From: a virus
Lineage: Duplodnaviria; Caudoviricetes
IMG/VR virus record: IMGVR_UViG_3300030107_005819
Coordinates: 1-55,980 of that record
Length of the DNA: 55,980 nt
Strand: one strand, 5' to 3'
Positions 16,706-43,179 of this stretch are shown one piece after another; position 1 is the first letter of the stretch; every line of letters begins with the position of its first letter. The translations under genes were made by a program, and so were the position numbers. The notes beneath the pieces are model-generated. The model saw only the letters and a list, made by a program, of their open reading frames with translations. It searched no databases and was not told the origin of the DNA.

Positions 16706-17461
16706 TTATTTTTCTAGTGACATCTTGGTGTCATAAGAATCGTTGATAATGTTTATTAGCCTTTCGATGTCACCGGCTCGTCGAAGAAGTTTGAAGGCGA
16801 GGTTCTCCGTGGAATAAACCCCCTTCTCTTCGAGGCCCGCTTTTCTCATTCTCTTAATCTTATCTTTAATTTTTCTGGCGGCTTTGATGGCGTCGTCAAA
16901 TTTCTCTTTTTTCATGAGGCGCTCGGCATCATCAACTTGTCTTACCAAGTCTTCTGCTTTTTTGACAGCGTTCTCCTTATCCATCCTTTCGTCGCCACGA
17001 TCTGGCTTCTTGATCCAGCGATCATACTTTAAAGAATAGATCCCTGGAGATTCATGGGGGTCGCCTCGGTTCTCGAAATAAAGTTCCACTTCGTAATCCC
17101 CCAAATAGATTTGATGAGTCCGATTCCACACGGATTTCTTAGCATTGAGAAAGTCTCGAACTAAGTCAACGTTTTCATCAACCTGGGAGAAATCTAAAAT
17201 GATGTGCAGATCGTAGTCTGAATACTTCGACCAGTTATAGTTGGCGAGGGAGCCAGTGAGAACAATATCCTGAATAACAAACTTATCTAGTCCCAATTCC
17301 TTGATAAAGTCATTGGCGATCTTGAGAAGTCTCTCGGTGATCTCTGGTTTGATTCTGTCGTCCTCGTCCCACACATTTCGATCTAAGTCGTCGTGAAGTG
17401 TTAGGGAGTCGGGGTCCAGAAGTTCTTTAATATTTATAGTGTGAAACATATTCATTCTCAA
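16706..17461 (-). CDS. DNA polymerase beta-superfamily nucleotidyltransferase
   Basis: TGSLANYNWSKYSDYDLHI (GS...DxD) plus VELY. Confidence 0.8.
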   Translation of the reverse strand: MRMNMFHTINIKELLDPDSLTLHDDLDRNVWDEDDRIKPEITERLLKIANDFIKELGLDKFVIQDIVLTGSLANYNWSKYSDYDLHIILDFSQVDENVDLVRDFLNAKKSVWNRTHQIYLGDYEVELYFENRGDPHESPGIYSLKYDRWIKKPDRGDERMDKENAVKKAEDLVRQVDDAERLMKKEKFDDAIKAARKIKDKIKRMRKAGLEEKGVYSTENLAFKLLRRAGDIERLINIINDSYDTKMSLEK

Positions 17462-18090
17462 TCTTGAAAGTCCTCTTCCTCTAACAAAGTATAAGTAAAG
17501 GAGTTACCATAAATATCCGCCGACTCATTACATATGTCTAAAAAATGTAAAAAATCTTTACTATTCTTAAAAACCTGACATCCAGCGGAGGAACCTCGGA
17601 CATATTCTTTCTCTCCCGCTCTTGAATGGCGATGAATGTTGATGCCAAACATTCCCTTCTGAATATTGTCCTCATCCATCTCTAGCTTGGAGTCTTTATC
17701 ATCGTCTCGATAGACTCGGACTGGGCCTCCTCGCTGTATAAGGGCCGTGTGACGGAGTGACCCGCCATGAGTCCCGATCTTATAAACTCCCCGGTATTGG
17801 TCAGGAACCAAGATGGCTGTCCCATCGGGATTGATTGGCTTTCTGAGAATAGAGGGGCCAGGATCCGTCGTGATCTCGTATGACTCCACTGTCCATTCTT
17901 TGTTTTTGTCTCGATAAACCAGAAGTAAGGTGTCATCAAACTTGGTGGAATCATGTGCCGCGGAACGGATGCCTATAATGTTGACGTTGAGGGGTTTGTT
18001 CCCGTCAAAAAACCTATACCCCTTCTCCTCAAGAATGTCCTTGATGAGTTCGGCATTGATGCTGGCATATAGTCCTTTAATGGTTGTCAT
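17458..18090 (-). CDS. YkuD/L,D-transpeptidase-like cell-wall enzyme (candidate endolysin)
   Basis: GINIH...SSAGCQV (His...SxGC), TTDPG. Confidence 0.6.
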   Translation of the reverse strand: MTTIKGLYASINAELIKDILEEKGYRFFDGNKPLNVNIIGIRSAAHDSTKFDDTLLLVYRDKNKEWTVESYEITTDPGPSILRKPINPDGTAILVPDQYRGVYKIGTHGGSLRHTALIQRGGPVRVYRDDDKDSKLEMDEDNIQKGMFGINIHRHSRAGEKEYVRGSSAGCQVFKNSKDFLHFLDICNESADIYGNSFTYTLLEEEDFQD

Positions 18091-18111
18091 AACGTAATTC
18101 CGTCTATAATA

Positions 18112-18119
18112 TAAATAGT
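18112..18119 (-). promoter_or_regulatory. Putative late promoter motif ACTATTTA
   Basis: Intergenic, recurrent, no -35 box. Confidence 0.55.
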
Positions 18120-18129
18120 TGTTATGACT

Positions 18130-18321
18130 CTATTTTTCGTCTTCTGGTTCGAATGAGTGGGTGTGCTTGTTGCCAAATTTATCATATAAAATTAGGTCGC
18201 CTGAAGATATCTCATGTCTCTTCTCAGGAGTCTTTTGCTTCTTTGGTGGTTGCCCACACCACTTAAGGTGATGAGCGGGTATTGAGGTTACAGGTTGTAC
18301 GGGGGAGATTTTATTTATCAT
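18130..18321 (-). CDS. Hypothetical protein
   Basis: 63 aa; ISPVQPV...LYDKFG. Confidence 0.55.
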   Translation of the reverse strand: MINKISPVQPVTSIPAHHLKWCGQPPKKQKTPEKRHEISSGDLILYDKFGNKHTHSFEPEDEK

Positions 18322-18736
18322 TTATTAACTCTTTTGCTTTCTCGACTGCTTTTTTATATTTGTTAGATAAATTATACTCTTTTGGTTCCGAAAGTTTAAC
18401 TCTTTTATACCCAGAGTGCTCATCACTAAGTTTTATTTCCTGATCAGGAAGTTCTAAAACATAAAAAGTGGTTGAATCTAAAGTTCCCACCTTCTGGGCT
18501 TTAGACGAATCAATGTCCAGTCCTGTTTCTTCTTTTACTTCCCGCTCTAATGCCGTGAGTTTCTCCTCTCCCTCCTGGACGTGGCCTCCGGGGAGGTCAA
18601 AGGTGTCGAAACTATTTTCCAGCCCAAGGAATGTGCCGTCCTTGTGGAGAATTATTTTTACCACTTCATCACTATCTTCTATTTTTTCTTGTGTTTCGCT
18701 CATAAACTTCCACCAATTTTCAAGGAGTTGTTTCAT
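18311..18736 (-). CDS. Nudix hydrolase with MKQLLENW leader
   Basis: Nudix box PGGHVQEGEEKLTALEREVKEETGL; LSDEHSGY. Confidence 0.92.
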   Translation of the reverse strand: MKQLLENWWKFMSETQEKIEDSDEVVKIILHKDGTFLGLENSFDTFDLPGGHVQEGEEKLTALEREVKEETGLDIDSSKAQKVGTLDSTTFYVLELPDQEIKLSDEHSGYKRVKLSEPKEYNLSNKYKKAVEKAKELINDK

Positions 18737-18960
18737 TTTTTAAGCGACTCCTCCGTGGCATTAATAAGGGCCTCCATTATGTCTATCACATCGATTGGGA
18801 TTTCAGACGTATTACCATAAAATTCTCTCAGCAATTCTCCAATTCTACCTTCTAAGGCAATAACTCTCTGAAGATCTTCTTCTGAAATTTTAGGTTGATG
18901 AGGGAAGTCAAGAACCTCTCCTTCTAATAATTTACGCCAATTTTCAAGTAGTTGTTTCAC
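18733..18960 (-). CDS. Small protein with MKQLLENW leader
   Basis: GTG start; first 8 aa identical to the neighbouring Nudix protein. Confidence 0.75.
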   Translation of the reverse strand: MKQLLENWRKLLEGEVLDFPHQPKISEEDLQRVIALEGRIGELLREFYGNTSEIPIDVIDIMEALINATEESLKK

Positions 18961-19342
18961 TTTGATGTTTCTCCTTGATATAATTAGCTATTGGAACAGC
19001 TTCTCCGTCACCATCAATACGAACAAATTTCATCTGTGTTCGACAAACTACCTTCTCCGAGTTATTATATGTGCTATGTCGCCGAGCTTCAATGTTTAAA
19101 AGACAAGAGGATCGACCAAAGTTTTCTAAGTTTCCATAAATTTTTATGATTTGACCTGGGCGAACTGGTTTCAAAAACTGAACCTTGTCCATAGAAACGG
19201 TGACCATTCGTGGTGTCTCACAAATCTGACAAGCGTACGCCACCGCGGCCTCGTCCAGCCAAGCAAGCATAAGGCCGCCAAAGAGATTTCCATGATAACC
19301 ACAATCATTCTCTTTACACATGTGTGTAGATATTAGTTCCAT
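18944..19342 (-). CDS. Acyl-CoA thioesterase, hotdog fold (YciA-like)
   Basis: DCGYHGNLFGGLMLAWLDEAA, VTVSMDKVQFLKPV.PG, FGRSS, FVRID. Confidence 0.9.
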   Translation of the reverse strand: MELISTHMCKENDCGYHGNLFGGLMLAWLDEAAVAYACQICETPRMVTVSMDKVQFLKPVRPGQIIKIYGNLENFGRSSCLLNIEARRHSTYNNSEKVVCRTQMKFVRIDGDGEAVPIANYIKEKHQSETTT

Positions 19343-19963
19343 TTACAACTCCTGAGATAATTGTGTGGCCCGAGCAATAGTGGCCTGGATATCGTCTTCC
19401 TGAATCACATGGTCGGCAAGAGACTGGACTTTCTCATCCTTGGCCACTTCCTTTTCCAACTCTTTCATTCTCGCTGCTAGTTGCTCTGGCGATTCATATT
19501 CTCCCGTTTCTTTTCTCTTTAGTTGACGTGAGACAAGCTCATCGGGGCTTGCTGTCACGTAAATAGCGTGAACTGTCTTTCCCAGATCTCGAAGCTCCTT
19601 CTTCAGTTTCATGACGCTGGTCTTGTCTGTAATCATAACTGCCTTGTCAGCCGCTCGAATCGCCTCCTTGTCGTTGCCATAAGAGTTGCCAGCATAAGCC
19701 AGGTTCACATTGAGGAGTCGATCTTGGTCGTATAAATCTTGAAAATTTTCCGGCGAAATAAATTCGTACTCTCGGTTTTCAGCTTCGGCTGATCCTGGGC
19801 GGGGAGGGCGTGTGGTGAAAGAGACAATCTTGTCCCACCCATTATCCACAAACACATCTCGTGCCACGGACTTACCCGATGCACTGGGGCCAAAGATAGC
19901 GACCACTGTTCCTGTTCCCTGATTCTCCTTAAGATAAGTTCCCCATCCCTTATGAAATGTCAT
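19343..19963 (-). CDS. gmk: Guanylate kinase-like protein
   Basis: GPSASGKS, SFTTRPPRPG, EYEFIS, GNSYG. Confidence 0.85.
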   Translation of the reverse strand: MTFHKGWGTYLKENQGTGTVVAIFGPSASGKSVARDVFVDNGWDKIVSFTTRPPRPGSAEAENREYEFISPENFQDLYDQDRLLNVNLAYAGNSYGNDKEAIRAADKAVMITDKTSVMKLKKELRDLGKTVHAIYVTASPDELVSRQLKRKETGEYESPEQLAARMKELEKEVAKDEKVQSLADHVIQEDDIQATIARATQLSQEL

Positions 19964-20382
19964 CGCTCCACCTGTGTAACTTTGAGAAGTTTAATACGGG
20001 TGACTCCATCAACTTTCAGAACGGTCTGAAGAAGAAGGTCAATGTATGCCTGGAGGGCAATCTTTTCTTTAACAACCTTAATGTCGATGAAACTTCGAAT
20101 CATGTTGCCTCCCAGAGGGGTGGGCTGTCCCTTGGTGGCACAGCGAGTTACTCCCTGAATAGCTCGGATACTGTTCAGGACATCGGTGGTGCTTTGAGAT
20201 TTGTCGTGAGTAAGGGCCGCGTTCAGCACATAGAGATCCAATGTAATCTCTGCCTCGGCAAGATGGCGGCCCACTTCCTCAAGGATATACGTGGCCGGAT
20301 CATTTTCAATTTTCTCTGCCACTTCAAGTGCTTGAGTTTCTTCTACTATTAGTTCTCTTAATCTCTTTTTGTTTATCTTCAT
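19960..20382 (-). CDS. Hypothetical protein with MKINKKRLRELIVEE leader
   Basis: 140 aa; IRAIQGVT / LKVDGVT suggests a ferredoxin-like alpha/beta domain. Confidence 0.7.
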   Translation of the reverse strand: MKINKKRLRELIVEETQALEVAEKIENDPATYILEEVGRHLAEAEITLDLYVLNAALTHDKSQSTTDVLNSIRAIQGVTRCATKGQPTPLGGNMIRSFIDIKVVKEKIALQAYIDLLLQTVLKVDGVTRIKLLKVTQVER

Positions 20383-20402
20383 TAGGTGGCCCCGGTTTAT
20401 AT

Positions 20403-20410
20403 TAAATAGT
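20403..20410 (-). promoter_or_regulatory. Putative late promoter motif ACTATTTA
   Basis: Heads the tightly coupled 20382-18130 gene run. Confidence 0.55.
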
Positions 20411-20416
20411 CCAATG

Positions 20417-20785
20417 TTAATGGATAGTTAAATTAATTCCCCACTTAGTAATGAGGTCATAGTCGTTAAACATAACTAACTGAGCGTGAGACTTCAGGGT
20501 GTCGACCTGAGCCTTTGTCAACAGATACTGTTCCTCTTGAGCTTCTTCGTTAAACTCCAGCTTTGATTCTTCTAGTTCTTCCATGATCTCTCGAAAAAGT
20601 CGAGCGTTTGTTATGTACTCACAAAGAAGATCAGTTAGCTCTTGGTTGGAGCTTTCCGATTTTACCTCTGTCTCCAATAGGTGGGACAAGAGTGACAAGC
20701 ATTGAAGAATTTCTTCATGTTGCTTCTTCCTGACACCTGGGTCAAACCAATACTTTCTGGGCTTAGGCGAGGGGAACTTGGGCAT
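20417..20785 (-). CDS. Hypothetical protein
   Basis: 122-aa helical ORF. Confidence 0.65.
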   Translation of the reverse strand: MPKFPSPKPRKYWFDPGVRKKQHEEILQCLSLLSHLLETEVKSESSNQELTDLLCEYITNARLFREIMEELEESKLEFNEEAQEEQYLLTKAQVDTLKSHAQLVMFNDYDLITKWGINLTIH

Positions 20786-20790
20786 TGGAT

Positions 20791-21093
20791 CTAATCTCTC
20801 AAAAGACTTTTGGTGTTTTTAAATATCTGCTTCTGTACTTGGCCTGGAGTTCCGATGACAACAACATCGATTCCTGTCTGGCCCCGATTCATATAAATTC
20901 TGGTAAAGGACTGGTTTTCGTCCAGGCCAGGGGGTAATTTACTTTCTTGTAAAAGGCCCTTAAAGTGAGGATCCTCTCGTAAGCACACTACTTGTTCCGG
21001 ATTGATAAAAACTTCACGTAATCCATAACTCCTTTGGCGTTCGTTCGAATGAACTCGGGTACTTTCATAAACTTCAACTAGCGATATTATCAT
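20791..21093 (-). CDS. Hypothetical protein
   Basis: 100 aa; VFINPEQVVCLRED. Confidence 0.7.
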   Translation of the reverse strand: MIISLVEVYESTRVHSNERQRSYGLREVFINPEQVVCLREDPHFKGLLQESKLPPGLDENQSFTRIYMNRGQTGIDVVVIGTPGQVQKQIFKNTKSLLRD

Positions 21094-21325
21094 ATTCTTT
21101 CCTCATTGATTTAACGTAATGCTTAGGAACACTCCAACATTGCCCATCATAAAATATCTTATGATATGTTTCGGTGTCGTCCTTAACAACCAACAACACA
21201 CAAGATGGCTCAGTGGTTTTACGGAAGCCCGAAGGGTGCCAACCATCTTTAGTAAACTTAAGGAGTGTTAAGTCTGCCGGGATGTAGACTAGATCACCTG
21301 CTTGTACAGACTCGGGGGTGCTCAC
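21074..21325 (-). CDS. Small KOW/SH3-like protein
   Basis: VQAGDLVYIP...YHKIFYDGQCWSV. Confidence 0.7.
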   Translation of the reverse strand: MSTPESVQAGDLVYIPADLTLLKFTKDGWHPSGFRKTTEPSCVLLVVKDDTETYHKIFYDGQCWSVPKHYVKSMRKEYDNIAS

Positions 21326-21744
21326 TGCTCTCCTCCCTCTTCTGTCTCTGTAAGCTCCTGAAGCTTTTCGTGTTGTTTCTGAAGTTCGGCCACCTTTTCA
21401 GCCAGTCCCGGATGAATGTCGGGAGAGGGAGAGGGAGCGGGGGTTGGAGCAACCACCTGGGGTGTCTCTAGTTGAGAGAGCACGTTTTGATATCCGGCCA
21501 TAAAATTAGAGAGGTCTTCGAAGTTGTCGATAATATCCTGTAGGCCGACTCTTACTGATTCCAAGTCACTCAAATGTCTTGTAGTTGCCTCCAGATTGCC
21601 TCGGTTTTTATCCACCTGATTACATAAGTGTTTTAAGGCGATAAATACCTCGTCCTGTAGTGAGTCGAGAATCTCCTCGGCTTTCTCCAGGATCTGTTCG
21701 GGAATTTCTTCCACTTCTATTCGTTTTTGTATTGTAACTTTCAT
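21322..21744 (-). CDS. Coiled-coil hypothetical protein
   Basis: Heptad-rich with Pro-rich linker. Confidence 0.7.
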   Translation of the reverse strand: MKVTIQKRIEVEEIPEQILEKAEEILDSLQDEVFIALKHLCNQVDKNRGNLEATTRHLSDLESVRVGLQDIIDNFEDLSNFMAGYQNVLSQLETPQVVAPTPAPSPSPDIHPGLAEKVAELQKQHEKLQELTETEEGGEQ

Positions 21745-21754
21745 ATTTTGTCCT

Positions 21755-22021
21755 TTATCCTAAGTGTTGATACCAACTAGCCACTGACATGGCGACCAGG
21801 GATGTGACCGCAAGCCACATAAGTTTAGTGGTGGTCTTCTTAACCCCCTCCAAGTCACGAACTCGGGCATAGAGGCCCTTGTCAGGGTCATAGAGAGCAT
21901 GATGGACCTGAGAAACATGTTCAGACATGTCTTCCTGTCTCTCTTTGATTACTTCAATCGAGTCCATAATTCGCTGGACTTTAATGTCCAATTCTCTTAA
22001 TGCTTCTTGGGGGCTTAACAT
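21755..22021 (-). CDS. Coiled-coil protein with C-terminal membrane helix (holin-like, tentative)
   Basis: LYDPDKGLYARVRDLE followed by LMWLAVTSLVAMSVASW. Confidence 0.6.
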   Translation of the reverse strand: MLSPQEALRELDIKVQRIMDSIEVIKERQEDMSEHVSQVHHALYDPDKGLYARVRDLEGVKKTTTKLMWLAVTSLVAMSVASWYQHLG

Positions 22022-22054
22022 AGCGGGATCACCTTTATTATATATGTTTCATAC

Positions 22055-22062
22055 TAATTAGT
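22055..22062 (-). promoter_or_regulatory. Putative late promoter motif ACTAATTA
   Basis: Intergenic variant of ACTATTTA. Confidence 0.45.
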
Positions 22063-22076
22063 CAACTAAAAACTGA

Positions 22077-23645
22077 TTATTTTTCGATAATTGCAAAATT
22101 TGTAGTAATCAAGGTCGACGCCACAGACACGGCATTCTGAAGGGCTGTAGTGGTTACCTTGGCGGGGTCGATAACTCCGGCCTCAAACAGGTCTGTTACC
22201 TCCCCGTCATAAAAATTGACGCCTCGATTCCCTTCTTCATTTAAAACAGTGTGGAGAGTGACATCGGGGGACACACCGGCATTAGAAGCCATCTGCCTAA
22301 TGGGGGCTTTCACTGCCTCTAAGACGATCTGAACTCCGAGGGATTGTTCTTCGTTATCGGTTTCCACCTCGACTCCGTGAGCGGCACGAACCAAGGTTAC
22401 TCCTCCTCCAGCCACGACCCCCTCTTGTTGAGCAGATCTAACAGCTTCAAGAGCATCTTCAATTCGGTGTTTCTTTTCAATCATCTCTACTTCAGACAAG
22501 CCACCGGCTCTAATAATTGCCACTCCACTGGCCAGTCTGGTTATTCGATCCTGAACTCTTTCCGCTTCATGGAGGTTCTCAGTCTGGCCTAATTCCACCT
22601 TAAGAACCTCAATTCTGTCTTCGACCTGATCGATGTCGCCCTGGCCTCCCACGAAGGTGGTCGTAGTTTTGTTAATGTCCACAGTGCTCACCACTCCCAA
22701 GTCTGCCAATTGGACTTCTTTTAATTTTTTTGAGGAAGATCGAGTGAAAAAGGTCGACCCAATAGAGAGGGCCAAGTCGCTTAAAATGTTCCTTCTCTCT
22801 TCCCCATAGCGAGGAGCCTTAACAGCCACCACCCTCATGGTGCCCCGAATAGCGTTCATAATAAGAGCGGCCAGGGCCTGACCTTCCACGTTCTCAGCGA
22901 CAATGAGCAGCGGTCGGTTTTCTCGGGCCACCAATTCCAATGTGGGCAAAATTTGCTCAACAGATTCGATAGACTCGTCCGTGATGAGAACATAACAATC
23001 TTCGTATTTAACGGCTCCCCTTCTCTCATCAGTAATAAATTGAGGAGAGAGATATCCGGATTCAATTCTAAATCCCTCCACGAAATCAAGACTGGTTTCG
23101 ATAGAGCGAGCTTCCTCCACTGTAATGGACCCATCTTTTCCCACTCGGTCGACGGCTGTCGCGACGAGCTTTCCAATCGTCTTATCATTATTAGCTGAAA
23201 TTGTAGCCACATGGGCAATATCGGCTTCGCTGGCGATTGGGCGAGCCATGGCCTTGACATTCGCCACAATGCTTTGTGTCGCTTTGTCCATCCCTCGCTT
23301 AAGTTCCACAGGGGAAACGCCCGCTTTAAGAAATTTCTGAGATTGATTAAGGATTGCTCGGGCTAAAACTGTCGCCGTGGTCGTTCCGTCTCCGGCATCG
23401 CTGTTAGTTTCTTCGGAAGCCTGCTTAATAATTTGGGCTCCCACATTTTCAAACTCATCTTCTAGGTCCACAAACTTGGCGATAGTCACACCGTCCTTCG
23501 TGATGATGGGGCGCTTTCCCTTTTGTTGAAGGATCACGTTCCGTCCTTTGGGGCCAAGAGTGGATGCCACGTTGTCAGCCAGTTTATTAACTCCGGTCAA
23601 CACCTTCTCGTGTAAAGCAGAATCATTACAATACTTTTTAGTCAT
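22077..23645 (-). CDS. groEL: Group I chaperonin GroEL
   Basis: [59 protein letters not shown]; lacks GGM tail. Confidence 0.97.
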
Positions 23646-23668
23646 TTTAACCTCGTGTGTGTCTGTAT

Positions 23669-23696
23669 ATTATAACAAGTTTTGTGAAAAAGTAAA
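23669..23696 (-). promoter_or_regulatory. Extended -10 promoter for groEL
   Basis: TGTTATAAT with weak TTTACT -35 (16-nt spacer). Confidence 0.55.
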
Positions 23697-23699
23697 GGG

Positions 23700-24731
23700 T
23701 TATTTTATATAATCGTTAACATTTTGAGCAAGTTCCCTGCTCTGAGCCACGGCGTTGGTCGCCGCTAATTTATTTTCATTAACGAAGTAGTCAGTAAGCT
23801 CCTCAGATAAAACAGACATGTTGTCGTATATTAAAGTAACTCCCTGATTCAACCGACTCAACGAATCCCGAGCAATGTCGATGATTTCATCTTCAGTGGG
23901 AAGGGCCATGCCGATCTTAGATTCTATAGCGGCTTTATTAATAGACCATGACTTGCCATTGGAACCAATATTAACCGCCACATCAAAGTTTTCAGGAGTA
24001 ATCTCAACAAAATAAAAGTTCACACCATTTTGTCTTTTCTCCCCAATCACATATTCGACTGAACCGTAGTTTTCAATGCCCACTTTAAGTAATTCAACAT
24101 TCGTCCCTCCGGCAGAGGAGCCGGGTCTTACAAACTTTAAACTAAAAGCCTTCTGAGTGAGGCACGTTTCTTCGTCTGCCATCTCTTCTTCCGTCGACAT
24201 ACACATCACAACATCTTCAATCGGAAGTGATGAGCCTGTAGTATCTGTCTCCTGGGTTCCCCCAATGATTGCGGCCACGAAACTTTCAAACATCCAGCCG
24301 GCAGCTTGAGCTTCAAACTTGTAACGAATAGCACTGAACGCGTCCAGTAATGTAATGAAAGAGAGGATCTCTGGGATAGTATGATATCGACACGTCTCCT
24401 CGGAACAACTGTTAACAAAGTTGGCCAACGAAGCCACTCGCCCCTGGATAGTATTCTCGGTGGCATCAGCTTGAATCCGATTCACGAACATGTCCACCAT
24501 CTCTCGCTCTTGAGTTCCTGGCTTACCCCAGTCGTTAGTTATCCTTAACTGGGGGTAAGGGATGGCCCGACGATGCTCTTTAGTTGAGGGCTTGGCTTCC
24601 GTCTGTAAGGTGCTCGTGCTTTTTTTAAACTTGCTGAACTGTTCCTCAATTAAGGAAAACAAGTCCTGGGCGCTTATGGGATCTTCTTTGCTTCCCTCAA
24701 AGTGATTGTTTATAATGTCGTCGATGCTCAT
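23700..24731 (-). CDS. Hypothetical protein, PD-(D/E)XK nuclease-like
   Basis: AAGWMFESFVAAII...IEDV...FSLKF fits the E-helix...D...(D/E/S)xK pattern. Confidence 0.45.
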   Translation of the reverse strand: MSIDDIINNHFEGSKEDPISAQDLFSLIEEQFSKFKKSTSTLQTEAKPSTKEHRRAIPYPQLRITNDWGKPGTQEREMVDMFVNRIQADATENTIQGRVASLANFVNSCSEETCRYHTIPEILSFITLLDAFSAIRYKFEAQAAGWMFESFVAAIIGGTQETDTTGSSLPIEDVVMCMSTEEEMADEETCLTQKAFSLKFVRPGSSAGGTNVELLKVGIENYGSVEYVIGEKRQNGVNFYFVEITPENFDVAVNIGSNGKSWSINKAAIESKIGMALPTEDEIIDIARDSLSRLNQGVTLIYDNMSVLSEELTDYFVNENKLAATNAVAQSRELAQNVNDYIK

Positions 24732-24735
24732 GATT

Positions 24736-24743
24736 TAAATAGT
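24736..24743 (-). promoter_or_regulatory. Putative late promoter motif ACTATTTA
   Basis: Ends 4 nt before ATG 24731. Confidence 0.55.
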
Positions 24744-24761
24744 TAATATTGCTGGTTAATT

Positions 24762-25460
24762 CTAAATAATCTCATCAGCAATTCCCAGGTCTACTGCTTC
24801 CTCGGCGGTGAGATATACATTAACTTTCTTGTCCATAAGCTTCTTAAGATAACGCTTGGTCATATCAGTCTCTTCGGCCAAGCACTCAATGTGCCGCTCC
24901 TGCAGATATCTAATCTCATCCATTTCTGCCTCCAGGCTATGGATAGAACCATGACTGGCAGCGATGACACTGTGGATCATAACACGACAATTTTTGGCGA
25001 TCTTACGGTGCCCTTTGGTGCCAGAAGCTAAAAGCAGTACTCCGGCAGACATCACCTTTCCGATCCCAATCGTACAAACATCGGTCTGCTTTCTGGTGAG
25101 GCGGATCATATCATAGATGGCGAACATTTCCGGTGCTGAACCTCCGTGGGTGGAAATTAATAGCTCCAGGGGGTCGTTAACGGTGATCAACTCTGAGTCA
25201 ATGTCTTCCGGGTCGGCCAACTCTTGCCTCTCTGTCAACTTAAGTTGGTTAATGATGTGAAGAGAGTATACTATCTCTGAGGCTATTTCTTCTGTCACCT
25301 CTCCATAAAGAGCGATGGTCCGAATTTTGGGGCCTTCATCCTCTTCAGCGGCGGACCCAAACAAGGCTTCGAGATCGAGCCGGGGTGACACCTCTTCCTC
25401 CCCGGAGTTATCGACCACTTCTTCCTCGGCTTCTTTAATATATTTTCTTTTTCTTCCCAT
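24762..25460 (-). CDS. clpP: ClpP-family protease subunit
   Basis: RTIALYGEV, ISTHGGS, GKVMSAGVLLLASGTKG, RVMIHS, YLTAEEAVDLGIADEII. Confidence 0.92.
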   Translation of the reverse strand: MGRKRKYIKEAEEEVVDNSGEEEVSPRLDLEALFGSAAEEDEGPKIRTIALYGEVTEEIASEIVYSLHIINQLKLTERQELADPEDIDSELITVNDPLELLISTHGGSAPEMFAIYDMIRLTRKQTDVCTIGIGKVMSAGVLLLASGTKGHRKIAKNCRVMIHSVIAASHGSIHSLEAEMDEIRYLQERHIECLAEETDMTKRYLKKLMDKKVNVYLTAEEAVDLGIADEII

Positions 25461-25469
25461 AATTTCCTT

Positions 25470-25868
25470 TTAGGCTCGTCGCCTTTTAATGTCTTTTTTG
25501 TAAACACGGTCTAGCTCTTTCATGGCCCCATCCCAGTCCTCATATTTAATAACAAATCTATAGTTTTTAGGGAAATGCATTAGAAAATTTCCAATAACAG
25601 AAGCTTTCCAATTGGCAAACACTCTCTCATCTAGCTCCTGAAGCTCGGCCAGATCCGATTCACTGACACTAGACTTGTGAAGGTGTTTATACTTCATTTC
25701 TCTGGCAAGGCTTAGATCGGCGGCGGCAATCCCCAAGACTGTTAAGCATTGGTGATTAATCTTCTCCACAAAATTGGCCAAGTGGCCGTAAACCAGTACC
25801 GCCGTCAGCGCCCTATACGTGAAGACGCCAATTACAAACCAAATTAGCTCCTTATGTTGTTCATACAT
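25470..25868 (-). CDS. Hypothetical protein with N-terminal hydrophobic segment
   Basis: LIWFVIGVFTYRALTAVLVY. Confidence 0.7.
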   Translation of the reverse strand: MYEQHKELIWFVIGVFTYRALTAVLVYGHLANFVEKINHQCLTVLGIAAADLSLAREMKYKHLHKSSVSESDLAELQELDERVFANWKASVIGNFLMHFPKNYRFVIKYEDWDGAMKELDRVYKKDIKRRRA

Positions 25869-25893
25869 TCGTTCTCCATTATATACAAAGTAT

Positions 25894-25922
25894 ACTATAT
25901 CAAATTTGGGAACAGTTGTAAA
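25894..25922 (-). promoter_or_regulatory. sigma70-type promoter
   Basis: TTTACA-17-TATAGT with TGn extension. Confidence 0.7.
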
Positions 25923-25924
25923 GC

Positions 25925-26545
25925 TTATTCTTCAGAATCGGTGGCTTTTTTAGTGAGTCGCTGAAAAATCTTTTCTGTAAGCTGCTCAGCCAATTGATCA
26001 TGTTTTAAATTATCAATCTTGCTTTGAACTTTCTGGAGGAGAGTTTCAAAAAAGACATTTGTTTCATCGCCTTCCTCATAAACGTCTCTCATCGCTGGCT
26101 CTTCTTCAACATCCAGGGCTGCTTCAAACTCGTCGCCGTCGTCTTCAATATCAAGATCGGCCTCAAGATCCTCATCGCCCTCGTCGTCCAGATCGAGAAC
26201 TTCTTCGTCCTCCATATCACTGGCTACGTTTACTTCTACATCGAAGTGCTCTTCGGCGGAGGCGGCGATGTCCTCGATGAAACCGGTAAGTGCGTCTTCG
26301 ATGTCTACAGGAGCTTCAACTTCAACTTCGGCATCAACCTCTACCTCATCCTCAATCTCAAGATCTTCGTCATCCATGCCCATATCGGGGTCGTCAATAA
26401 CCTCTTCTTCGTCTTCGATCTCAAGCTCATCCTGCTCATTAACCTCTTCTTCCTCTGGAAGAAAGGTCTCGGAGAGAGGCCCAAGAGATGCCAGCTTCAT
26501 AAAGCGGCGAATGGTTGCTTCGTTAAGAAGTGTCTTCTTGCTCAT
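25925..26545 (-). CDS. Extremely acidic protein, prohead core/scaffold-like
   Basis: MSKKTLLNEATIRRFMKLA leader, long D/E tracts, C-terminal amphipathic helix. Confidence 0.6.
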   Translation of the reverse strand: MSKKTLLNEATIRRFMKLASLGPLSETFLPEEEEVNEQDELEIEDEEEVIDDPDMGMDDEDLEIEDEVEVDAEVEVEAPVDIEDALTGFIEDIAASAEEHFDVEVNVASDMEDEEVLDLDDEGDEDLEADLDIEDDGDEFEAALDVEEEPAMRDVYEEGDETNVFFETLLQKVQSKIDNLKHDQLAEQLTEKIFQRLTKKATDSEE

Positions 26546-26575
26546 AGTATTGCTCCTTGAAAAAAATACTCAAAT

Positions 26576-26583
26576 TAAATAGT
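26576..26583 (-). promoter_or_regulatory. Putative late promoter motif ACTATTTA
   Basis: Intergenic, upstream of the acidic protein. Confidence 0.55.
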
Positions 26584-26624
26584 AAGTTACACCACAAAGT
26601 GCTCAAAATAATGACTTTTTGCTC

Positions 26625-26861
26625 TTAACTCCTATTTTTTATTCTCTTATTTAATTTTTGCTGGGCCTTAGTTTCAATTTGTTTCACCCTAACAAAGCTC
26701 ACTCCGAGCCTTTCGGCCACCTCTCGGAGGGTCATTTGGCCATGTTTTTCCACTGCTATTAAAGTACAGTTATAATCGTCTTCATACTCAATCCAATGGC
26801 GGCATTCTTTGACGGGGCACACAAAGCCCTTTTCTTTACACACATCCGTACAATCGTTCAT
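26625..26861 (-). CDS. Stand-alone sigma70 region-4 HTH protein with Cys-rich N-terminus
   Basis: MTLREVAERLGVSFVRVKQIETKAQQKL; five Cys in the first 32 aa. Confidence 0.8.
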   Translation of the reverse strand: MNDCTDVCKEKGFVCPVKECRHWIEYEDDYNCTLIAVEKHGQMTLREVAERLGVSFVRVKQIETKAQQKLNKRIKNRS

Positions 26862-28531: not shown

Positions 28532-28532
28532 T

Positions 28533-29009: not shown

Positions 29010-29013
29010 TTCT

Positions 29014-32000: not shown

Positions 32001-32421
32001 ATATGTTGTTCAAGCCCATTTGGTTCTGGGCAAGCAAGATAAGGTGGTTCCTTTTCTTTAAGATATTGGTCACTTTCTGCTTAGAAGCGCTTTCATCTTC
32101 AATACTTAGAGAAATATCACGATCCACCTTCTTTTTTTCATTTTTTGCTCTCTCGTATTCTTCTCTCCACTCTTCAAGGGAAGGCAAGAAATAAGCCTCG
32201 ACCCCAAAGATGGGCTTAAAATTATCCCCATTCGCCTTAAGTCTCTTAGCGTGTAGAACCTGATAAGGAAGACCGTTCATGTGCCCGTGGTCGGTTAGCG
32301 CCAAAGCATCGGAACCGTTGTGAAGGGCGAAGTCAATATGGTCTTGAGGATAACCAAGACCGTCGTTCAGGCTCAAGCCACTGTGGGCGTGTAACCCAAC
32401 AAAGGGTATTTTTTTAGACAA
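29014..32421 (-). CDS. dnaE: DNA polymerase III alpha subunit (family C)
   Basis: PHP domain HAHS/TDHG/DSHY, GRGSAAGSLV, PDIDYD, RHAGGVV, KFDILGL, YGFNKSH; no intein. Confidence 0.97.
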   Translation of the reverse strand: MSKKIPFVGLHAHSGLSLNDGLGYPQDHIDFALHNGSDALALTDHGHMNGLPYQVLHAKRLKANGDNFKPIFGVEAYFLPSLEEWREEYERAKNEKKKVDRDISLSIEDESASKQKVTNILKKRNHLILLAQNQMGLNNIFKLVSESYKDGNFYRYPRMDYNLLSQYSDGVVAASACLGGVYAGNYWDNKEEGDEAVLEAMRDTTRRMKQIFGDRWFGELQWNNIPAQHELNKYIVKVCREFDVDLISTADSHYPNPDAWKDRELYKRIGWLGKGGLPSYMDPELPGGVEEIGYELYPKNGEQMWESYQKYSELLDTNYDDSLVRDSIERTHHIAHDLIEDFLPDNEVRLPKFVVPAGKTDIQALTEDCLAGLAERGLDEKEEYVERLKEELTTIKDRGFAKYFLTMKAIADKATSVQLTGPGRGSAAGSLVAYVLNITQIDPIKYGLLFSRFLRRDAVDYPDIDYDVSNPMDLKEILIEEWGDSTVVPISNYNTLQLRSLIKDVSKFYDIPFSEVNLVTGRMMQEATPIAKKVHGIKAGVYVPNFEEVMEYSDSLKKFLDKYPYVKTHIVALLGQVRSVSRHAGGVVIGENLDQWMPLVNSGGVRQTPWSEGQNVRHLEPLGFIKFDILGLASLRMIEDAVRHILRRHHGVENPTFDQVKDYYDEHLHPDKINLNDQDVYKNIFHEGKWAGVFQFTEKGAQDFCKRAQPRSIIDISAITSIYRPGPLSAKVDQNYVEAKKRPSDVEYLHDMVRDVTKETYGFLIFQEQIALLAHQLGDDISLDEGNTLRKLLTKKGTGDHEKKKLKIYNKFVKGCVSKGLSQGDAEGLWQTFEYFSGYGFNKSHAVSYSILSYQCAYLLNYYPSEWMAAFLDKEPEKRKEKAINIAKSFGFNLEKLNVNTSGRVWEISEDGKTLIQPLTSIKGLGETAIEQILTHRPFETIDDLLFREGIIHSKLNKKALDVMCRAGALDTIRDDRFSGMKHMWAAAIADRPKNPKKLAANIESYRDEKDFSVDEKIIYLSELTGIFPMDLVLKGAVRRKLEENYIPAISDYDPDLQVVWFIPREIIKRKTKNGKTYWILNVVDSNNITTSIKCWGVRDDDKVYINRPYMAKLSYDEQWGFSTRSIRHNLRLLG

Positions 32422-32449
32422 TATGTTTCTCCAATTATTTTACAGTCTT

Positions 32450-32478
32450 AGACTAACATAGTATTAATAGAATGTCAA
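32450..32478 (-). promoter_or_regulatory. sigma70-type promoter for dnaE
   Basis: TTGACA-17-TAGTCT with TGT extension. Confidence 0.7.
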
Positions 32479-32518
32479 GTATTTTCTTCAAACTATTTTC
32501 AATGAAGCTTCTAAGCTG

Positions 32519-36008: not shown

Positions 36009-36009
36009 C

Positions 36010-36294
36010 TTAGCGCCTCGTTAGAATCCCCAACACATAATTTTCTAAAATCAAAAAGCTCGTCTCTTCTTGAAGTTCAACTTTATTAAGCATGTGTGTT
36101 TCCACCAAGGCCATGTCTCCTCGTGAAATATTGACCGTGCAGTCAGGAGAAATATCTTTGATTCTCACATAAGAGTGTTCTTCCACGGCTGGCTTATAGT
36201 CATCTGGCAGTAAAATTGAAGGCTTGTTTTCCTCTTGTGGTTTGTCTATTTTTTCAACCAACAAGTGTCGGTTTCTTGGACTAAATTTCATCAT
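36010..36294 (-). CDS. groES: Co-chaperonin GroES-like
   Basis: MMKFSPRNRHLLVE...SILLPD...GDMALV...LILENYVLGI; start reassigned to 36294 (GGAG SD). Confidence 0.75.
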   Translation of the reverse strand: MMKFSPRNRHLLVEKIDKPQEENKPSILLPDDYKPAVEEHSYVRIKDISPDCTVNISRGDMALVETHMLNKVELQEETSFLILENYVLGILTRR

Positions 36295-36316
36295 AACTCC
36301 TTTGTTTTGTTTAGTT

Positions 36317-36345
36317 ATATTAGTTCTTTTTTCTTCTTCTGTCAA
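36317..36345 (-). promoter_or_regulatory. sigma70-type promoter
   Basis: TTGACA-17-TAATAT. Confidence 0.65.
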
Positions 36346-36350
36346 GCTTT

Positions 36351-38783
36351 TTATCCACACTTCGAATAACCACACTTAGTACAGGTCACACAACCGTCTT
36401 GATAAATGAGGCCATGGTCGGCGCCACAACTTGGACAAGCCTTGTCGGAGTGGGCTCGTTCTCCGTTCTTGATATAGTTCTTAAGGATCCTGCCGACACA
36501 ACGAGCAAAGCTAAACATATCACTATCTTTGTCTTTTTGAAGTTGCTCCACCAAAAAGGATGGCTTCGCTCCGTGACGGAGACCGAGCGATATCATTCGA
36601 GTAAACGCGGAGTTGTTGGGGTTGTCGAAAACTTTAACGACATCTTTCACCACAACCTCGTCGCCGTTCTCTCCGAACGTGAGGTCGTAACGATTCTCTT
36701 TTGTCTTATAAGATTGCTTGGCGAGCTTCCCACCCGTATATCTCTTGGGGATTTCAATCAAATTGGAGAGTCCCCCCATAACCTCATATGGCTTATCTTG
36801 GAAAAGTCCCACGAGAATAGTCCACCTTTCCCCTTTAATGGTTGTGTGGTGGATGTCACAATCTAAATCGTCAGGACGTCGTGGGGCAATGTTTTGAGGA
36901 AATTTTTCGGTCGGGGCTTTAGTGTCATTAGACACCAATACTCCGGAGCGAGACCCGTCCACATAAACGGTAATCCCTTTAAGGCCCTTCTTCCACCCCA
37001 AGCGGTAAAGATCTGAAACCACCGATGACGGAGTTCCTTTAGGCAAATTAATCGTCGAACTAATGGAGTGGTCAATGTTCTGTTGGATCGCCGCTTGAAT
37101 AGCAACCCTTCGAGTCCAGTCAATTTGATCGCTGGTCACAAAAAAATCTGGAACAGTGGCTGCTCCCAAGTGGGTGTTTTTCCATTCCTGGACGTTATGG
37201 TGGAAAACATCGTACTCCAACCATTTGTCACCCATATCATCAACGAAATCTGGCTCAACACCTGTCTCGTTGTGAGAAAGCTTTCTTCTTCTCTTATAAC
37301 TGTTCCTGAACACCGGCTCCAGTCCCGAACTGGTCTGAGATAAAATAGAGACACTTCCGGTGGGAGCGTTTGTAAGAATGGAAATATTTCTCCTTCCGTG
37401 GTGCTTGATTAGTTTTTTAATTGCTGTTGGCAATCTTTTAATAAAGGCGTTATCCTTTTCTTTCTCCCAGTCAAAGGCCAAGAAAGCTCCCCGCTCTTTG
37501 GCCAAGTTAACACTTTCTGTATATGCTGAGTTTCTGAGAGTGGAATAAACTTTATCGACAATCTGCTCGGCCTCTTCGCTGTCGTACTTTACCCCGAGGC
37601 AAGCGAGGGCATCGGCTAGTCCATGGGTCCCAAGGCCAGTTCGCCGGCCATTACGACACGCGTTTAAAAGATTTGTCCACATTTCTTTCTCGTCTGGTGT
37701 GTCACAAATGCTTATAATGTTTTCTAACTTTTCGACCTCAAGCTCAACGAGATCGTCCGAAAGCCTCATCGCCACACTGGCAATGTTAGTGAAGTGTTCA
37801 AAGTCAAACTCGGCATTTTGAGTAAACTTATTCTTCACGAAGTTCTTTAAATTAATAGAAATAAGGCGGCAACTATCATAAGCTGATAAGGGAATTTCCC
37901 CACACGGATTGGTTGTAATTGTTTTAAATCCCACGTCGGAATAACTGTGGGCTGGGAGATTGTTAATGATGTTATCCCACATCATCAGACCCGGTTCCGC
38001 TGTCTCTGTGGCAGACTCCACAATCTGATCCCACAGGGCCTCAGCATCGATTTCTTCGGTGTAAGTTGGGGAATCCGAGTCAACCGGAAATTGAAGGGTA
38101 AATTTCTCCTTCGCTTCAACAGCCTCCATAAAACTATCGCTGATTTTTACCGACACATTGGCTCCGGTCACCTTCGTCAGATCATGCTTCATTGTTACAA
38201 ACTTCTGAATATCTGGGTGTCGAACATCCATGGTGATCATAAGGGCTCCTCGGCGTCCGTTTTGCCCGATCATTCGGCACACATAAGAATAGAAATCAGC
38301 AAAGGACCAAGCGCCTGTTGTAGTTCCGGCGGAGTTATTAACATAAGTTCCCTCTGGTCGTAACTCCGAAATATCTAAGCCAACGCCACAGCGGCGCTTG
38401 AAGAGGTTAGCAAGCTCTTTCCCGCTGTCCACGATTGAAGAAATGTTATCACCGGGAGAGTCAACGACCACACAGTTAGATAAGGAAAGGTTCACCTCGT
38501 TATTGCCAATACCCATCATGGGGGAGCCCTGGGGGACAATATACTTAAACCCCTTTAGAACCTCGTAAATTGATTCTTCAGACAATGCTCGTGGTCCATC
38601 GAACTTTTGCTCTATTCGGGCAAATTCAGAGGCCAGTCGTCGATGCATGTCGTCTGGAGTTGTCTCCAGCAACTTTCCCTTCTTACTCTTAAGAGCGTAT
38701 TTTGTAATCCATACGTTGGCGGCAAGCTCATCTCCGCCAAAATAATCTAATGTTTTCTTCTCAACTTTTTTGCTGTCAACCAT
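36351..38783 (-). CDS. nrdJ: Adenosylcobalamin-dependent (class II) ribonucleotide reductase
   Basis: LSNCVV, TTNPCGEIPL...SCRL, NAPTGS, KGITVYVDGSR (no YY dyad), C-terminal CPSC...CTKCGYSKCG; no nrdB nearby. Confidence 0.92.
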   Translation of the reverse strand: MVDSKKVEKKTLDYFGGDELAANVWITKYALKSKKGKLLETTPDDMHRRLASEFARIEQKFDGPRALSEESIYEVLKGFKYIVPQGSPMMGIGNNEVNLSLSNCVVVDSPGDNISSIVDSGKELANLFKRRCGVGLDISELRPEGTYVNNSAGTTTGAWSFADFYSYVCRMIGQNGRRGALMITMDVRHPDIQKFVTMKHDLTKVTGANVSVKISDSFMEAVEAKEKFTLQFPVDSDSPTYTEEIDAEALWDQIVESATETAEPGLMMWDNIINNLPAHSYSDVGFKTITTNPCGEIPLSAYDSCRLISINLKNFVKNKFTQNAEFDFEHFTNIASVAMRLSDDLVELEVEKLENIISICDTPDEKEMWTNLLNACRNGRRTGLGTHGLADALACLGVKYDSEEAEQIVDKVYSTLRNSAYTESVNLAKERGAFLAFDWEKEKDNAFIKRLPTAIKKLIKHHGRRNISILTNAPTGSVSILSQTSSGLEPVFRNSYKRRRKLSHNETGVEPDFVDDMGDKWLEYDVFHHNVQEWKNTHLGAATVPDFFVTSDQIDWTRRVAIQAAIQQNIDHSISSTINLPKGTPSSVVSDLYRLGWKKGLKGITVYVDGSRSGVLVSNDTKAPTEKFPQNIAPRRPDDLDCDIHHTTIKGERWTILVGLFQDKPYEVMGGLSNLIEIPKRYTGGKLAKQSYKTKENRYDLTFGENGDEVVVKDVVKVFDNPNNSAFTRMISLGLRHGAKPSFLVEQLQKDKDSDMFSFARCVGRILKNYIKNGERAHSDKACPSCGADHGLIYQDGCVTCTKCGYSKCG

Positions 38784-40155: not shown

Positions 40156-40158
40156 GAA

Positions 40159-40437
40159 TCACCAACACTGAATGTCGATGTTTTCCCACCAACAACCGTA
40201 AGGATCCTCATAACGACACCATGTTTCTTCACACAGCCAGCCGGAATAGTCCATATATTCCCACACACAACAGGTATCCGGGTAACAATAGGTTGGGTTT
40301 CCCTTTGCCCAATAAAGGTCTTCTTCGTATTCACAAAGGGGTTCTATTAAATAAGGTCCGGTGGGACCCGGAAGGCTTGTATCTATTAAACAACCCCCCA
40401 ATAAAAATACTGAAATTACCAGTAATGCTCGTCTCAT
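40159..40437 (-). CDS. Cys/Trp-rich putative lipoprotein
   Basis: MRRALLVISVFLLGGC lipobox. Confidence 0.7.
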   Translation of the reverse strand: MRRALLVISVFLLGGCLIDTSLPGPTGPYLIEPLCEYEEDLYWAKGNPTYCYPDTCCVWEYMDYSGWLCEETWCRYEDPYGCWWENIDIQCW

Positions 40438-40453
40438 TTATACTCCTTTAAAG

Positions 40454-40526
40454 TACGCCCTCTGGGAGTCGAACCCAGGTCTACTCGCTTATAAGACGAG
40501 CGCTCTTACCACTGAGCTAAAGGCGT
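40454..40526 (-). tRNA. tRNA-Ile, anticodon UAU, CCA not encoded
   Basis: ACGCCTT-TA-GCTC AGTGGTAA GAGC-G-CTCGT CT TAT AA GCGAG-TAGAC-CTGGG TTCGACT CCCAG-AGGGCGT-A; complete cloverleaf. Confidence 0.92.
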
Positions 40527-40535
40527 ATTGTGTTT

Positions 40536-40564
40536 ATACTAACAAAAAAATTAAGATTTGTCAA
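40536..40564 (-). promoter_or_regulatory. sigma70-type promoter for the tRNA
   Basis: TTGACA-17-TAGTAT with TGT extension. Confidence 0.8.
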
Positions 40565-41231
40565 GGTCTGATTTACTTTTTCTGACAAATACAAAATTCT
40601 TGCCTTTATACTCGTTGGCTTTACAAAGTGCTTCAATAAAGGAGTTCGGTGCTTCGACCTCCAAAATATCTTTTTGACCCTCTTCTTTAAAGACGAAGGT
40701 TGTCCCCCTGACTCTCGACCAGAAATCAGAGTCGTTGGGAATTTTCTCCAGGGTTGACCATGGGCCGCCGTACTCTACAGCATTTCCACTGCTGTCGTAA
40801 GCATTGATGTGCATTCGATTGGTCTTGGCTCCTGGCTCTCCAAAAATAAAAGCGTCCTGTTCATAGAGTTCGGAAAGGTCCTTTCCTAATTCAAACAGTT
40901 CTTTTCTCTCATCCCCTTCAGAGTCTCCTCGGGGTTCATCATAAACGATCACCGACTTTTCTATTACTCTAACCGGCTCGCCGTCCTCACCCTTCTCAAC
41001 CCAAGACCCCTCCAGATCAGCGAAAGGATATCCACTGGTCTTGATGGCCTGTTTGAGATTTTTGTTTCTCTTGTTGTTTTGGTTTCTGGAGTGTTCGTGT
41101 CTATCGCCAGAGATCACAACAAAGGGAACCTTCATATCCTCAATTTTTTTAAGGATTCTACTGTAGGTGGTTTCGTTAATTGTTTCGATAGTCTTTCTCC
41201 ACTTGTTCATTATGTCTTTCATGTCGCTCAT
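40551..41231 (-). CDS. Phage protein (DUF3293-like, from memory) with MKDIMNKWRK leader
   Basis: VVISGDR...NNKRNKNLK...LEGSWVE...EKSVIV...LSELYEQDAFIF. Confidence 0.6.
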   Translation of the reverse strand: MSDMKDIMNKWRKTIETINETTYSRILKKIEDMKVPFVVISGDRHEHSRNQNNKRNKNLKQAIKTSGYPFADLEGSWVEKGEDGEPVRVIEKSVIVYDEPRGDSEGDERKELFELGKDLSELYEQDAFIFGEPGAKTNRMHINAYDSSGNAVEYGGPWSTLEKIPNDSDFWSRVRGTTFVFKEEGQKDILEVEAPNSFIEALCKANEYKGKNFVFVRKSKSDLDKS

Positions 41232-41236
41232 GTCCT

Positions 41237-43163: not shown

Positions 43164-43179
43164 ACTATAATAAATATGA

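Follow-up and report, generated by a model that had tools for sequence, protein, structure and literature searches.

A pair of portable N-terminal leaders in uncultured T4-related phages, candidates for a capsid-targeting role

The 55,980-bp viral record IMGVR_UViG_3300030107_005819, analysed over its whole length and called the window here, carries five genes whose products start with a portable N-terminal leader, a short peptide that also precedes many unrelated proteins elsewhere in IMG/VR. Two classes can be told apart, type A with the consensus MKLLLENWRKFLNE and type B with the consensus MKITKxQLKQIIKEE, and both share one architecture: hydrophobic residues at positions 3/4, 8, 11 and 12, and a glutamate at position 14. 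Judged from sequence, this pair of leaders is real, widespread in an uncultured marine clade and apparently undescribed; a full-text literature search with the motif strings of both types found no phage paper. The phages that carry the leaders are most likely distant relatives of T4 grouped around Flavobacterium phage immuto. We lean towards the view that the amphipathic leaders, 14–16 residues long, are capsid-targeting tags analogous to those of T4, which would be clipped after the glutamate.

Two leader classes on unrelated proteins

Four of the window leaders are of type A and one is of type B (Table 1). Type A is found on a Nudix hydrolase, a 75-residue open reading frame (ORF) and a SAM-lyase-like protein, and in a divergent form on a guanylate kinase (Gmk); the type B leader belongs to a 140-residue ORF. 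A six-frame scan of the window with generic type A and type B expressions matched only at 18736, 18960, 36375 and 20382, all of them ORF starts. The Nudix assignment rests on the Pfam score (NUDIX, PF00293, 40.6 bits against a cut-off of 21.1, with the domain starting at about residue 21) and on the predicted fold, the catalytic residues not having been inspected. In the AlphaFold2 model, which has a mean predicted local distance difference test score (pLDDT) of 85, the leader forms a helix over residues 2–14, residues 14–20 are a linker with pLDDT below 50, and the Nudix fold follows from residue 21 on. The five nearest homologues bear the leader with its tryptophan, and five more distant ones have no leader. 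A protein identical to the window's Nudix hydrolase, P0027, is encoded on a contig of 183,008 bp. Homologues of the 75-residue ORF at loci L070 and L077 have the same leader followed by EGEV.DFP. Gmk matches Guanylate_kin (PF00625) from residue 20 with 62 bits, against a cut-off of 25.2, and conserves the P-loop GPSASGKS; Trp7 and Glu13 of its leader are invariant in 13 aligned orthologues, down to 53% identity, while the other leader residues and the leader length vary. The leader of the 140-residue ORF has Leu8, Leu11, Ile12 and Glu14, matching the type B logo. Finally, the SAM-lyase-like protein scores 37.5 bits with S-AdoMet_lyase (PF23780; cut-off 28), and its fold resembles the SAM lyases of T3, Svi3-3 and other phages in Foldseek (7OCK, E 1.5e-4; 6ZM9, 9e-4; 8BB1, 4e-3; target-normalised template-modelling scores 0.42–0.58); its activity is predicted only. 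An earlier note on this DNA had listed eight leader carriers. These five stand, and three had to be given up: an acidic protein, a nucleotidyltransferase-like protein and a 343-residue ORF.

Both leader types recur widely. The pattern MKQLLENWxK, back-translated, matched 18 IMG/VR loci, with a chance expectation that we estimate roughly as far below 1, and a looser type A pattern matched at least 136. We took 80 of these loci, which gave 84 matches, 75 distinct translations and 67 ORFs of at least 60 residues starting MKxx[LIFMV]ENWRK. Positions that the search pattern did not cover are conserved as well: of 63 leaders, 54 have an aromatic residue at position 11, 58 have Leu, Ile, Val or Met at position 12, and 50 have Glu at position 14. 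When ENWRK was searched in five records with no start codon in the pattern, a methionine lay exactly five residues upstream in all eight matches. For type B, a pattern consisting of LKQIIKEE alone matched at least 137 loci, with a methionine exactly seven residues upstream in 76 of 104 matches and with positions 1–7 conserved though unsearched. Type B proteins are small (median 109 residues) and often lie in tandem arrays.

Synonymous codons vary within the type A leaders (Arg9 is CGA in 32, AGA in 13, CGG in 9, CGT in 7 and CGC in 5), so that what is conserved, and under selection, is the peptide and not the DNA; a DNA-level or translation-enhancer signal was rejected on this ground. The same variation, with residues fixed while synonymous codons change freely, argues against the idea that the leaders are conserved only through recombination at a shared 5' cassette, made up of promoter and first codons, and that the peptide has no targeting role. 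The idea draws on a near-identical 30-nucleotide (nt) element, ending gaatggattagcaac, that precedes the leader gene in 12 of the 18 strict-pattern loci (L002–L006, L008–L013 and L018) and may be a shared promoter or the 5' cassette of a sub-lineage. It also draws on the position of leader genes in hypervariable tandem arrays, and the internal-protein loci of T-even phages have been described as prone to recombination. Upstream sequences differ among most loci, however, the tryptophan and glutamate are invariant in Gmk orthologues despite changes in other leader residues and in leader length, and two unrelated leader types occur at the same junction. We consider the cassette explanation improbable.

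The proteins behind the leaders are highly diverse. After removal of the leader, BLASTP sorted the 67 type A ORFs into 48 cargo clusters and 69 type B ORFs into 65. Together with leader swapping, the presence of S77 in the leader-bearing phages, the likeness to the capsid propeptide and the promoter motif shared with tail genes, this fits the earlier proposal of a portable T4-like tag, ending in hydrophobic-x-Glu, on unrelated proteins. Most cargo belongs to no known family; a Pfam family was assigned at E ≤0.001 to 16 of the 67 type A cargo proteins. The curated cut-off is exceeded by PGDYG, RNase T, two GNAT acetyltransferases, an M23 peptidase, DUF3293, a zeta-toxin-like kinase and DUF6356, with a 2H phosphoesterase marginally over it and HAD and 5'-nucleotidase matches below it. 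The suggestion that the cargo is specifically nucleotide-acting does not hold when most of it falls outside known families.

The clearest case of modularity, as far as sequence comparison can tell, is the SAM-lyase-like family, in which orthologues carry either type A (for example P0038–57 and P0070) or type B (P0058–69 and P0071–76) at the same junction. The glutamate directly before the SAM-lyase domain (..LNE/TTF.., ..VIAE/SSF.., ..ILSE/ATF.., where the slash marks the junction) is at least 90% conserved in 25 sequences. The leader end thus carries the motif found at gp21 cleavage sites, hydrophobic-x-Glu, at which cleavage is predicted only. Taken by itself the pattern does not mark a leader: it occurs at chance level, in 19 of 73 N-termini against 265 of 1237 internal windows (21%).

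Lineage, promoter motif and prohead protease

CheckV estimates the window to be 32% complete, and nearly all of its genes lie on the minus strand. Pfam and PHROGs identify genes for replication (DNA polymerase III alpha, a divergent PolA-like protein, a DnaB-like helicase, RecA and a gp32-like protein) and for nucleotide metabolism (ribonucleotide reductase (RNR), thymidine kinase and a GMP reductase/IMPDH-type enzyme), in addition to GroEL, ClpX, a ClpP-family protein, FKBP, and tail-fibre and baseplate proteins. By local tblastn the window is collinear with 20–61 kb of another IMG/VR record, G035 (184,187 bp; CheckV 100%), with amino-acid identities of 66% for DnaE, 70% for RNR, 59% for GroEL and 70% for RecA; when 16 records with S77 or a leader were compared, the window's RNR was shared by G035 alone, and a search for longer records of the window's own phage gave one distant hit. 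The head module of G035 is of T4 type: its major capsid protein is of gp23 type and its portal of gp20 type, and alongside a large terminase and a scaffold-like gene it encodes a gp21-type protease of the Peptidase_S77 family, located at L175:1388–1984 on the minus strand. Among isolates, immuto and Microcystis phage Mel-JY01 come nearest, with about 45% identity in terminase and capsid protein. Searches of 50,697 phage records with tblastn gave no isolate match for the SAM-lyase-like protein, for the HAD-like cargo of locus L069 or for the 75-residue ORF, and the Nudix protein found distant Nudix genes only, with no close relatives among isolate phage records.

The earlier note had placed the leader genes in runs headed by ACTAWTTA, with none directly behind a sigma70 promoter. 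The first statement is right for the operon from 20382 to 18311, whose abutting or overlapping genes include four leader genes, and for the SAM-lyase-like gene; the late timing attached to the motif can be put only conditionally. The second is right for positions 16500–27000, where no sigma-70-like site directly precedes a leader gene; the 41-kb region lies outside that scan. ACTAWTTA occurs nine times in the window against 3.8 ± 2.0 expected, a count reached in 1 of 100 shuffles. Eight of the nine share the strand of the genes, seven of them at 4–33 nt before an ORF start. Of 67 IMG/VR leader genes, 16 have CTAWTTA in the 60 nt upstream, whereas 53 of 2029 control windows contain it. G035 has 20 ACTATTTA sites, of which 19 lie on the strand of the genes; some of them stand ahead of the genes for an adaptor-like protein, a tail sheath and a baseplate wedge subunit. 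Its position upstream of tail-sheath and baseplate genes suggests that the motif is of late type.

The spacing of the motif is short. It often ends 4–6 nt before the ATG (41231–41244 and 24731–24743 in the window; loci L017, L073 and L112), and in the IMG/VR leader genes the distance from motif start to ATG clusters at 11–12 nt. If ACTAWTTA acts as a −10-type element, the mRNAs would be leaderless or nearly so. A 78-residue protein (26625–26861) with a Cys-rich N-terminus and a match to Sigma70 region 4, 63% identical in G035, is a candidate for the phage transcription factor that serves these promoters.

Peptidase_S77 was found in 16 of 45 leader-bearing records (4 of 5 and 12 of 40 in two sets), most of which are fragments. 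Seven records are at least 90% complete. The leader is genuine in four of them, all with S77, and in the three near-complete records lacking S77 the pattern matches were spurious (an internal site, a 10-residue ORF and a non-matching peptide). G035 has ten type A genes in one island of about 10 kb (9.9–19.5 kb) and four type B genes, including one that adjoins the terminase gene, and in two further records, G002 and G005, the protease gene is flanked by genes with type-A-like leaders. A complex prediction for the G035 scaffold-like protein with capsid-protein residues 1–100 and a leader-bearing N-terminus (residues 1–40) scored 0.00 and was uninformative either way.

A different protease is invoked if the leaders are N-terminal degrons for the phage's own ClpP-like (24762–25460) and ClpX (10362–11783) proteins, through which accessory enzymes would be destroyed at a set time. 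ClpX is known to read some N-terminal motifs, the window encodes both a ClpX with a zinc finger and a ClpP-family protein, and the ClpP-like gene is kept at 49% identity in G035, which has an S77 prohead protease as well. G035 has no ClpX homologue at E <1e-5, yet it carries the ten type A and four type B leaders, and PHROGs classes the ClpP-like protein with head maturation proteases. A degron would also give no reason for the junction glutamate or for the likeness to the capsid propeptide described below. We give this explanation very little credence, less still than the cassette.

Likeness to the capsid propeptide and a proposed route into the head

The type A leader appears, on uneven evidence from sequence comparison, to resemble the propeptide of the major capsid protein. 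The window 13-mer QLLENWRKLLEGE, from the 75-residue ORF, was compared without gaps to 51,275 13-mers of 302 T4 ORFs; the top match was gp23 residues 8–20 (ELLNKWKPLLEGE), with a score of 46 versus 30 for the next-best T4 position. These residues lie in the part removed by gp21. The T4 record states that gp23 is cleaved, presumably after residue 65, which fits L-T-E/A in the gp23 sequence. In G035, the best non-leader match to the position-specific scoring matrix (PSSM) over 58,183 positions was residue 47 of the capsid protein (LLLENQAKELLR), within the propeptide, although the margin is small (12.1 versus 11.7). hhalign paired the leader profile, at MKLLLENWRKLL, with MALLLENQAKEL of the capsid protein, in the same propeptide segment, at 58% identity over 12 columns and E 0.038. 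In the first capsid-protein segment, K-W and E-G are invariant from T4 to this clade.

We propose the following route. The leader-bearing proteins would be expressed from the late-type promoter ACTAWTTA. By mimicking the capsid protein's N-terminal propeptide in type A, and possibly the start of the scaffold protein in type B, the leader helix would co-assemble with the scaffolding core inside the prohead. The S77 protease, of gp21 type, would cut after the hydrophobic-x-Glu at the leader end and free the enzyme in the head, and on infection Nudix, Gmk, SAM lyase and other cargo would pass into the new host along with the DNA. The SAM lyase of T3 is an anti-restriction enzyme; placed behind a late-type promoter, such an enzyme would be useful mainly if it were carried into the next cell.

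Several observations weigh against this proposal. The 13-mer QLLENWRKLLEGE was picked after gp23 had been seen; with 10-mers, the gp23 site ranks 2, 15, 1, 713 and 302 for the five window leaders, and for 42 IMG/VR leaders its median rank is 32.5 of 52,181, within the top 50 for 29 of the 42 and first for none. A PSSM built from pattern-selected leaders does not pick gp23 in T4, the hhalign probability of the pairing with the capsid propeptide is 1.35%, and the scaffold-like N-terminus resembles type B weakly (rank 10th of 57,918). The type A and type B PSSMs, run over the 302 T4 ORFs, do not rank among the top the two ORFs of the T4 record that start MKTYQEFIAE, so the leaders are an analogue and no demonstrable homologue of the T4 capsid-targeting sequence (CTS). 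Glu14 is missing in 13 of 63 type A leaders, and the cargo is mostly acidic (median pI 4.6–5.0). In the model of the SAM-lyase-like protein, the leader helix is continuous with the first helix of the domain (residues 2–29). A Pfam scan found no head genes in the 55,980 bp of the window, including no Peptidase_S77, and neither leader pattern occurs in the nearest isolates, immuto and Mel-JY01. Gmk and Nudix, finally, could equally act in the cell that produces the phage.

The last point leads to the main rival, in which the leaders are docking or oligomerisation helices that bring proteins into a cytoplasmic assembly (a complex for nucleotide synthesis or replication, the membrane, or one another) and have no part in the capsid. 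The predicted amphipathic helix would suit such a role. The Nudix, Gmk and SAM-lyase cargo of the window is related to nucleotides, leaders elsewhere precede HAD or nucleotidase-like proteins, kinases and exonucleases, and the window leader genes sit among replication and nucleotide-metabolism genes; the nucleotide enzymes of T4 form a complex. Docking leaves unexplained, however, the junction glutamate, the likeness to the capsid propeptide, the promoter motif shared with tail genes and the leader genes that flank the protease gene. Nor do an M23 peptidase, GNAT enzymes and dozens of small unknown proteins suit a nucleotide complex. We regard docking as unlikely.

Starting from the capsid-targeting proposal, a wider reading can be put forward tentatively, and we would sooner doubt than accept it. 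An abundant, uncultured marine clade may pack a large and rapidly turning-over arsenal of enzymes through two interchangeable head-loading tags, one a copy of the capsid-propeptide helix and the other possibly a copy of the scaffold N-terminus, and deliver it alongside the DNA, so that restriction and nucleotide-signal defences are disarmed ahead of any phage gene expression. The arsenal would include SAM lyase, Nudix, guanylate and other kinases, HAD-type phosphatases, a 2H phosphoesterase, an exonuclease, acetyltransferases, an M23 peptidase and dozens of unknowns. The mimicry would also point to the part of gp23 that contacts the scaffolding core; the portion of a 2023 T4 review available to us calls the localisation of proteins to the core 'mysterious' (PMC9958956). 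The capsid-targeting proposal, taken by itself, has consequences of its own. If it is right, an injected SAM lyase or Nudix enzyme would already be at work before restriction or signalling defences of the host could respond, and what T4 does with its internal proteins would prove to be a general and modular means of delivery among ocean phages. The tags would then supply a simple sequence rule for predicting injected proteins among metagenomic phage genes. The likeness between type A and the capsid propeptide would offer a testable handle on how the core is recognised by cargo and shell, and the leader could serve as a new short tag with which to load phage heads with foreign proteins.

Other window features and comparison with known systems

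Table 1. Leader genes, promoter-like motifs and rejected leader candidates in the window (positions in nt)
Feature	Position	Strand	Leader, motif or basis
Nudix hydrolase, type A leader	18311..18736	-	leader MKQLLENWWKFMSE, residues 1-14, nt 18695-18736
75-residue ORF, GTG start, type A leader	18733..18960	-	leader KQLLENWRKLLE, nt 18919-18960; cargo of no assigned function
Guanylate kinase (Gmk), divergent type A leader	19343..19963	-	leader MTFHKGWGTYLKE, nt 19925-19963
140-residue ORF, type B leader, first gene of operon	19960..20382	-	leader MKINKKRLRELIVEE, nt 20338-20382
SAM-lyase-like protein, type A leader from Met4 (41222)	40551..41231	-	leader MKDIMNKWRKTIETINE, nt 41172-41222
ACTATTTA, promoter-like motif heading operon 20382-18311	20403..20410	-	motif scan
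ACTAATTA, motif 5 nt before first ATG of SAM-lyase-like gene	41237..41244	-	motif scan
ACTATTTA, motif before 210-residue ORF (17458-18090) and nucleotidyltransferase	18112..18119	-	motif scan
Conserved acidic protein, MSKKTLLNE/ATIRRFMKLA and acidic tail, no portable leader	25925..26545	-	ACTATTTA at 26576-26583; orthologue in G035
Nucleotidyltransferase-like protein, no appended leader	16706..17461	-	phrog_36119, residues 19-249 against profile 18-247
343-residue ORF, no leader shown	23700..24731	-	behind ACTATTTA at 24736-24743
121-residue ORF, first 13 residues type-A-like	36010..36375	-	G035 homologue aligns from residue 33 only, no leader

Four candidates were rejected as leader carriers. 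The acidic protein bears no portable tag, since all 80 TIRRFMKLA matches that were read come from one acidic-tailed family, of which its N-terminus is an orthologous part. This family (L330–L409) is very widespread, with 26–41% Asp plus Glu, lengths of 160–230 residues, the N-terminus MS.K.LL.E-TIRRFMKLA and a conserved L-x-E before TIRRF, and its gene sits behind ACTATTTA both in the window and in G035; the protein may serve in the core or as a scaffold-type protein, or may mimic DNA. The N-terminus of the nucleotidyltransferase-like protein falls inside the phrog_36119 family profile. A leader on the 343-residue ORF gained no support from Pfam, PHROGs or an Atlas look-up, which returned viral hypothetical proteins only and a weak lead to Eco47II at 0.83. 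The 121-residue ORF probably owes its type-A-like start to an artefact, the reading frame having been extended across the end of the RNR gene, since the leader is missing from the G035 homologue.

Several neighbouring genes deserve mention. The window holds a protein-folding and proteolysis kit, consisting of the ClpP-family protein (24762–25460), the zinc-finger ClpX (10362–11783), GroEL (22077–23645), a GroES-like ORF (36010–36375) and FKBP (44295–44747). A 290-residue ORF (45677–46549) with a glycine-rich N-terminus (IIGLGKAGCNIADKF) has no Pfam or PHROG match and is kept in G035 (44%); it lies behind ACTAATTA, between the gp32-like and PolA-like genes, and by eye its start recalls GTPases of the FtsZ/tubulin type. 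A tRNA-Ile gene with anticodon TAT (40453–40526, minus strand) is immediately downstream of the SAM-lyase-like gene. An HNH endonuclease ORF (42651–43253), between a fatty-acid-hydroxylase-like gene and recA, finds no counterpart in G035 at E <1e-5; it probably represents a mobile homing endonuclease.

The polymerase genes link the window to a described group. Phages related to immuto are known for divPolA1 and for swapped replicative polymerases, according to the parts of PMC11348598 available to us, and the divergent PolA-like gene (46586–47773) and the DNA polymerase III alpha (DnaE) gene (29014–32421) of the window fit this 'divPolA1 plus swapped regular polymerase' group. Those parts of the paper treat polymerases only, whereas leaders go unmentioned in them.

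The closest parallel is the CTS of T4, carried by IPII and IPIII, and also by IPI and Alt, and removed by gp21. As in T4, a short N-terminal peptide is common to unrelated, fast-evolving proteins and ends in hydrophobic-x-Glu as gp21 sites do; the lineage has an S77 protease, a gp20-type portal and a gp23-type capsid protein, and its leader genes lie in hypervariable islands. In the sections of the T4 literature available to us, gp21 is described as cleaving after L/I-x-E (PMC9026906), and the first ten residues of IPIII as enough for packaging (PMC9026906, PMC3012670). The differences are considerable. The T4 sequence has 10 residues rather than 14–16, and the leaders described here fall into two interchangeable classes, in neither of which similarity to the T4 sequence could be detected. 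Type A resembles the gp23 propeptide, whereas the T4 CTS, by our own reading, resembles the N-terminus of gp22 (..EFIAEA against ..QLIAEA). The cargo described here is mostly acidic, includes recognisable enzymes and is known from sequence alone.

A second parallel is offered by the giant phages phiKZ, 201phi2-1 and SPN3US and by the Dar proteins of P1. As described in the accessible portions of PMC9026906, PMC5694885 and PMC9024508, many head or ejection proteins of these phages are cut after Glu by a gp21-related protease, and enzymes and anti-restriction proteins are packaged. The propeptides reported in those portions are long and have no single shared short leader, whereas in the phages described here one 14-residue consensus stands on dozens of protein families.

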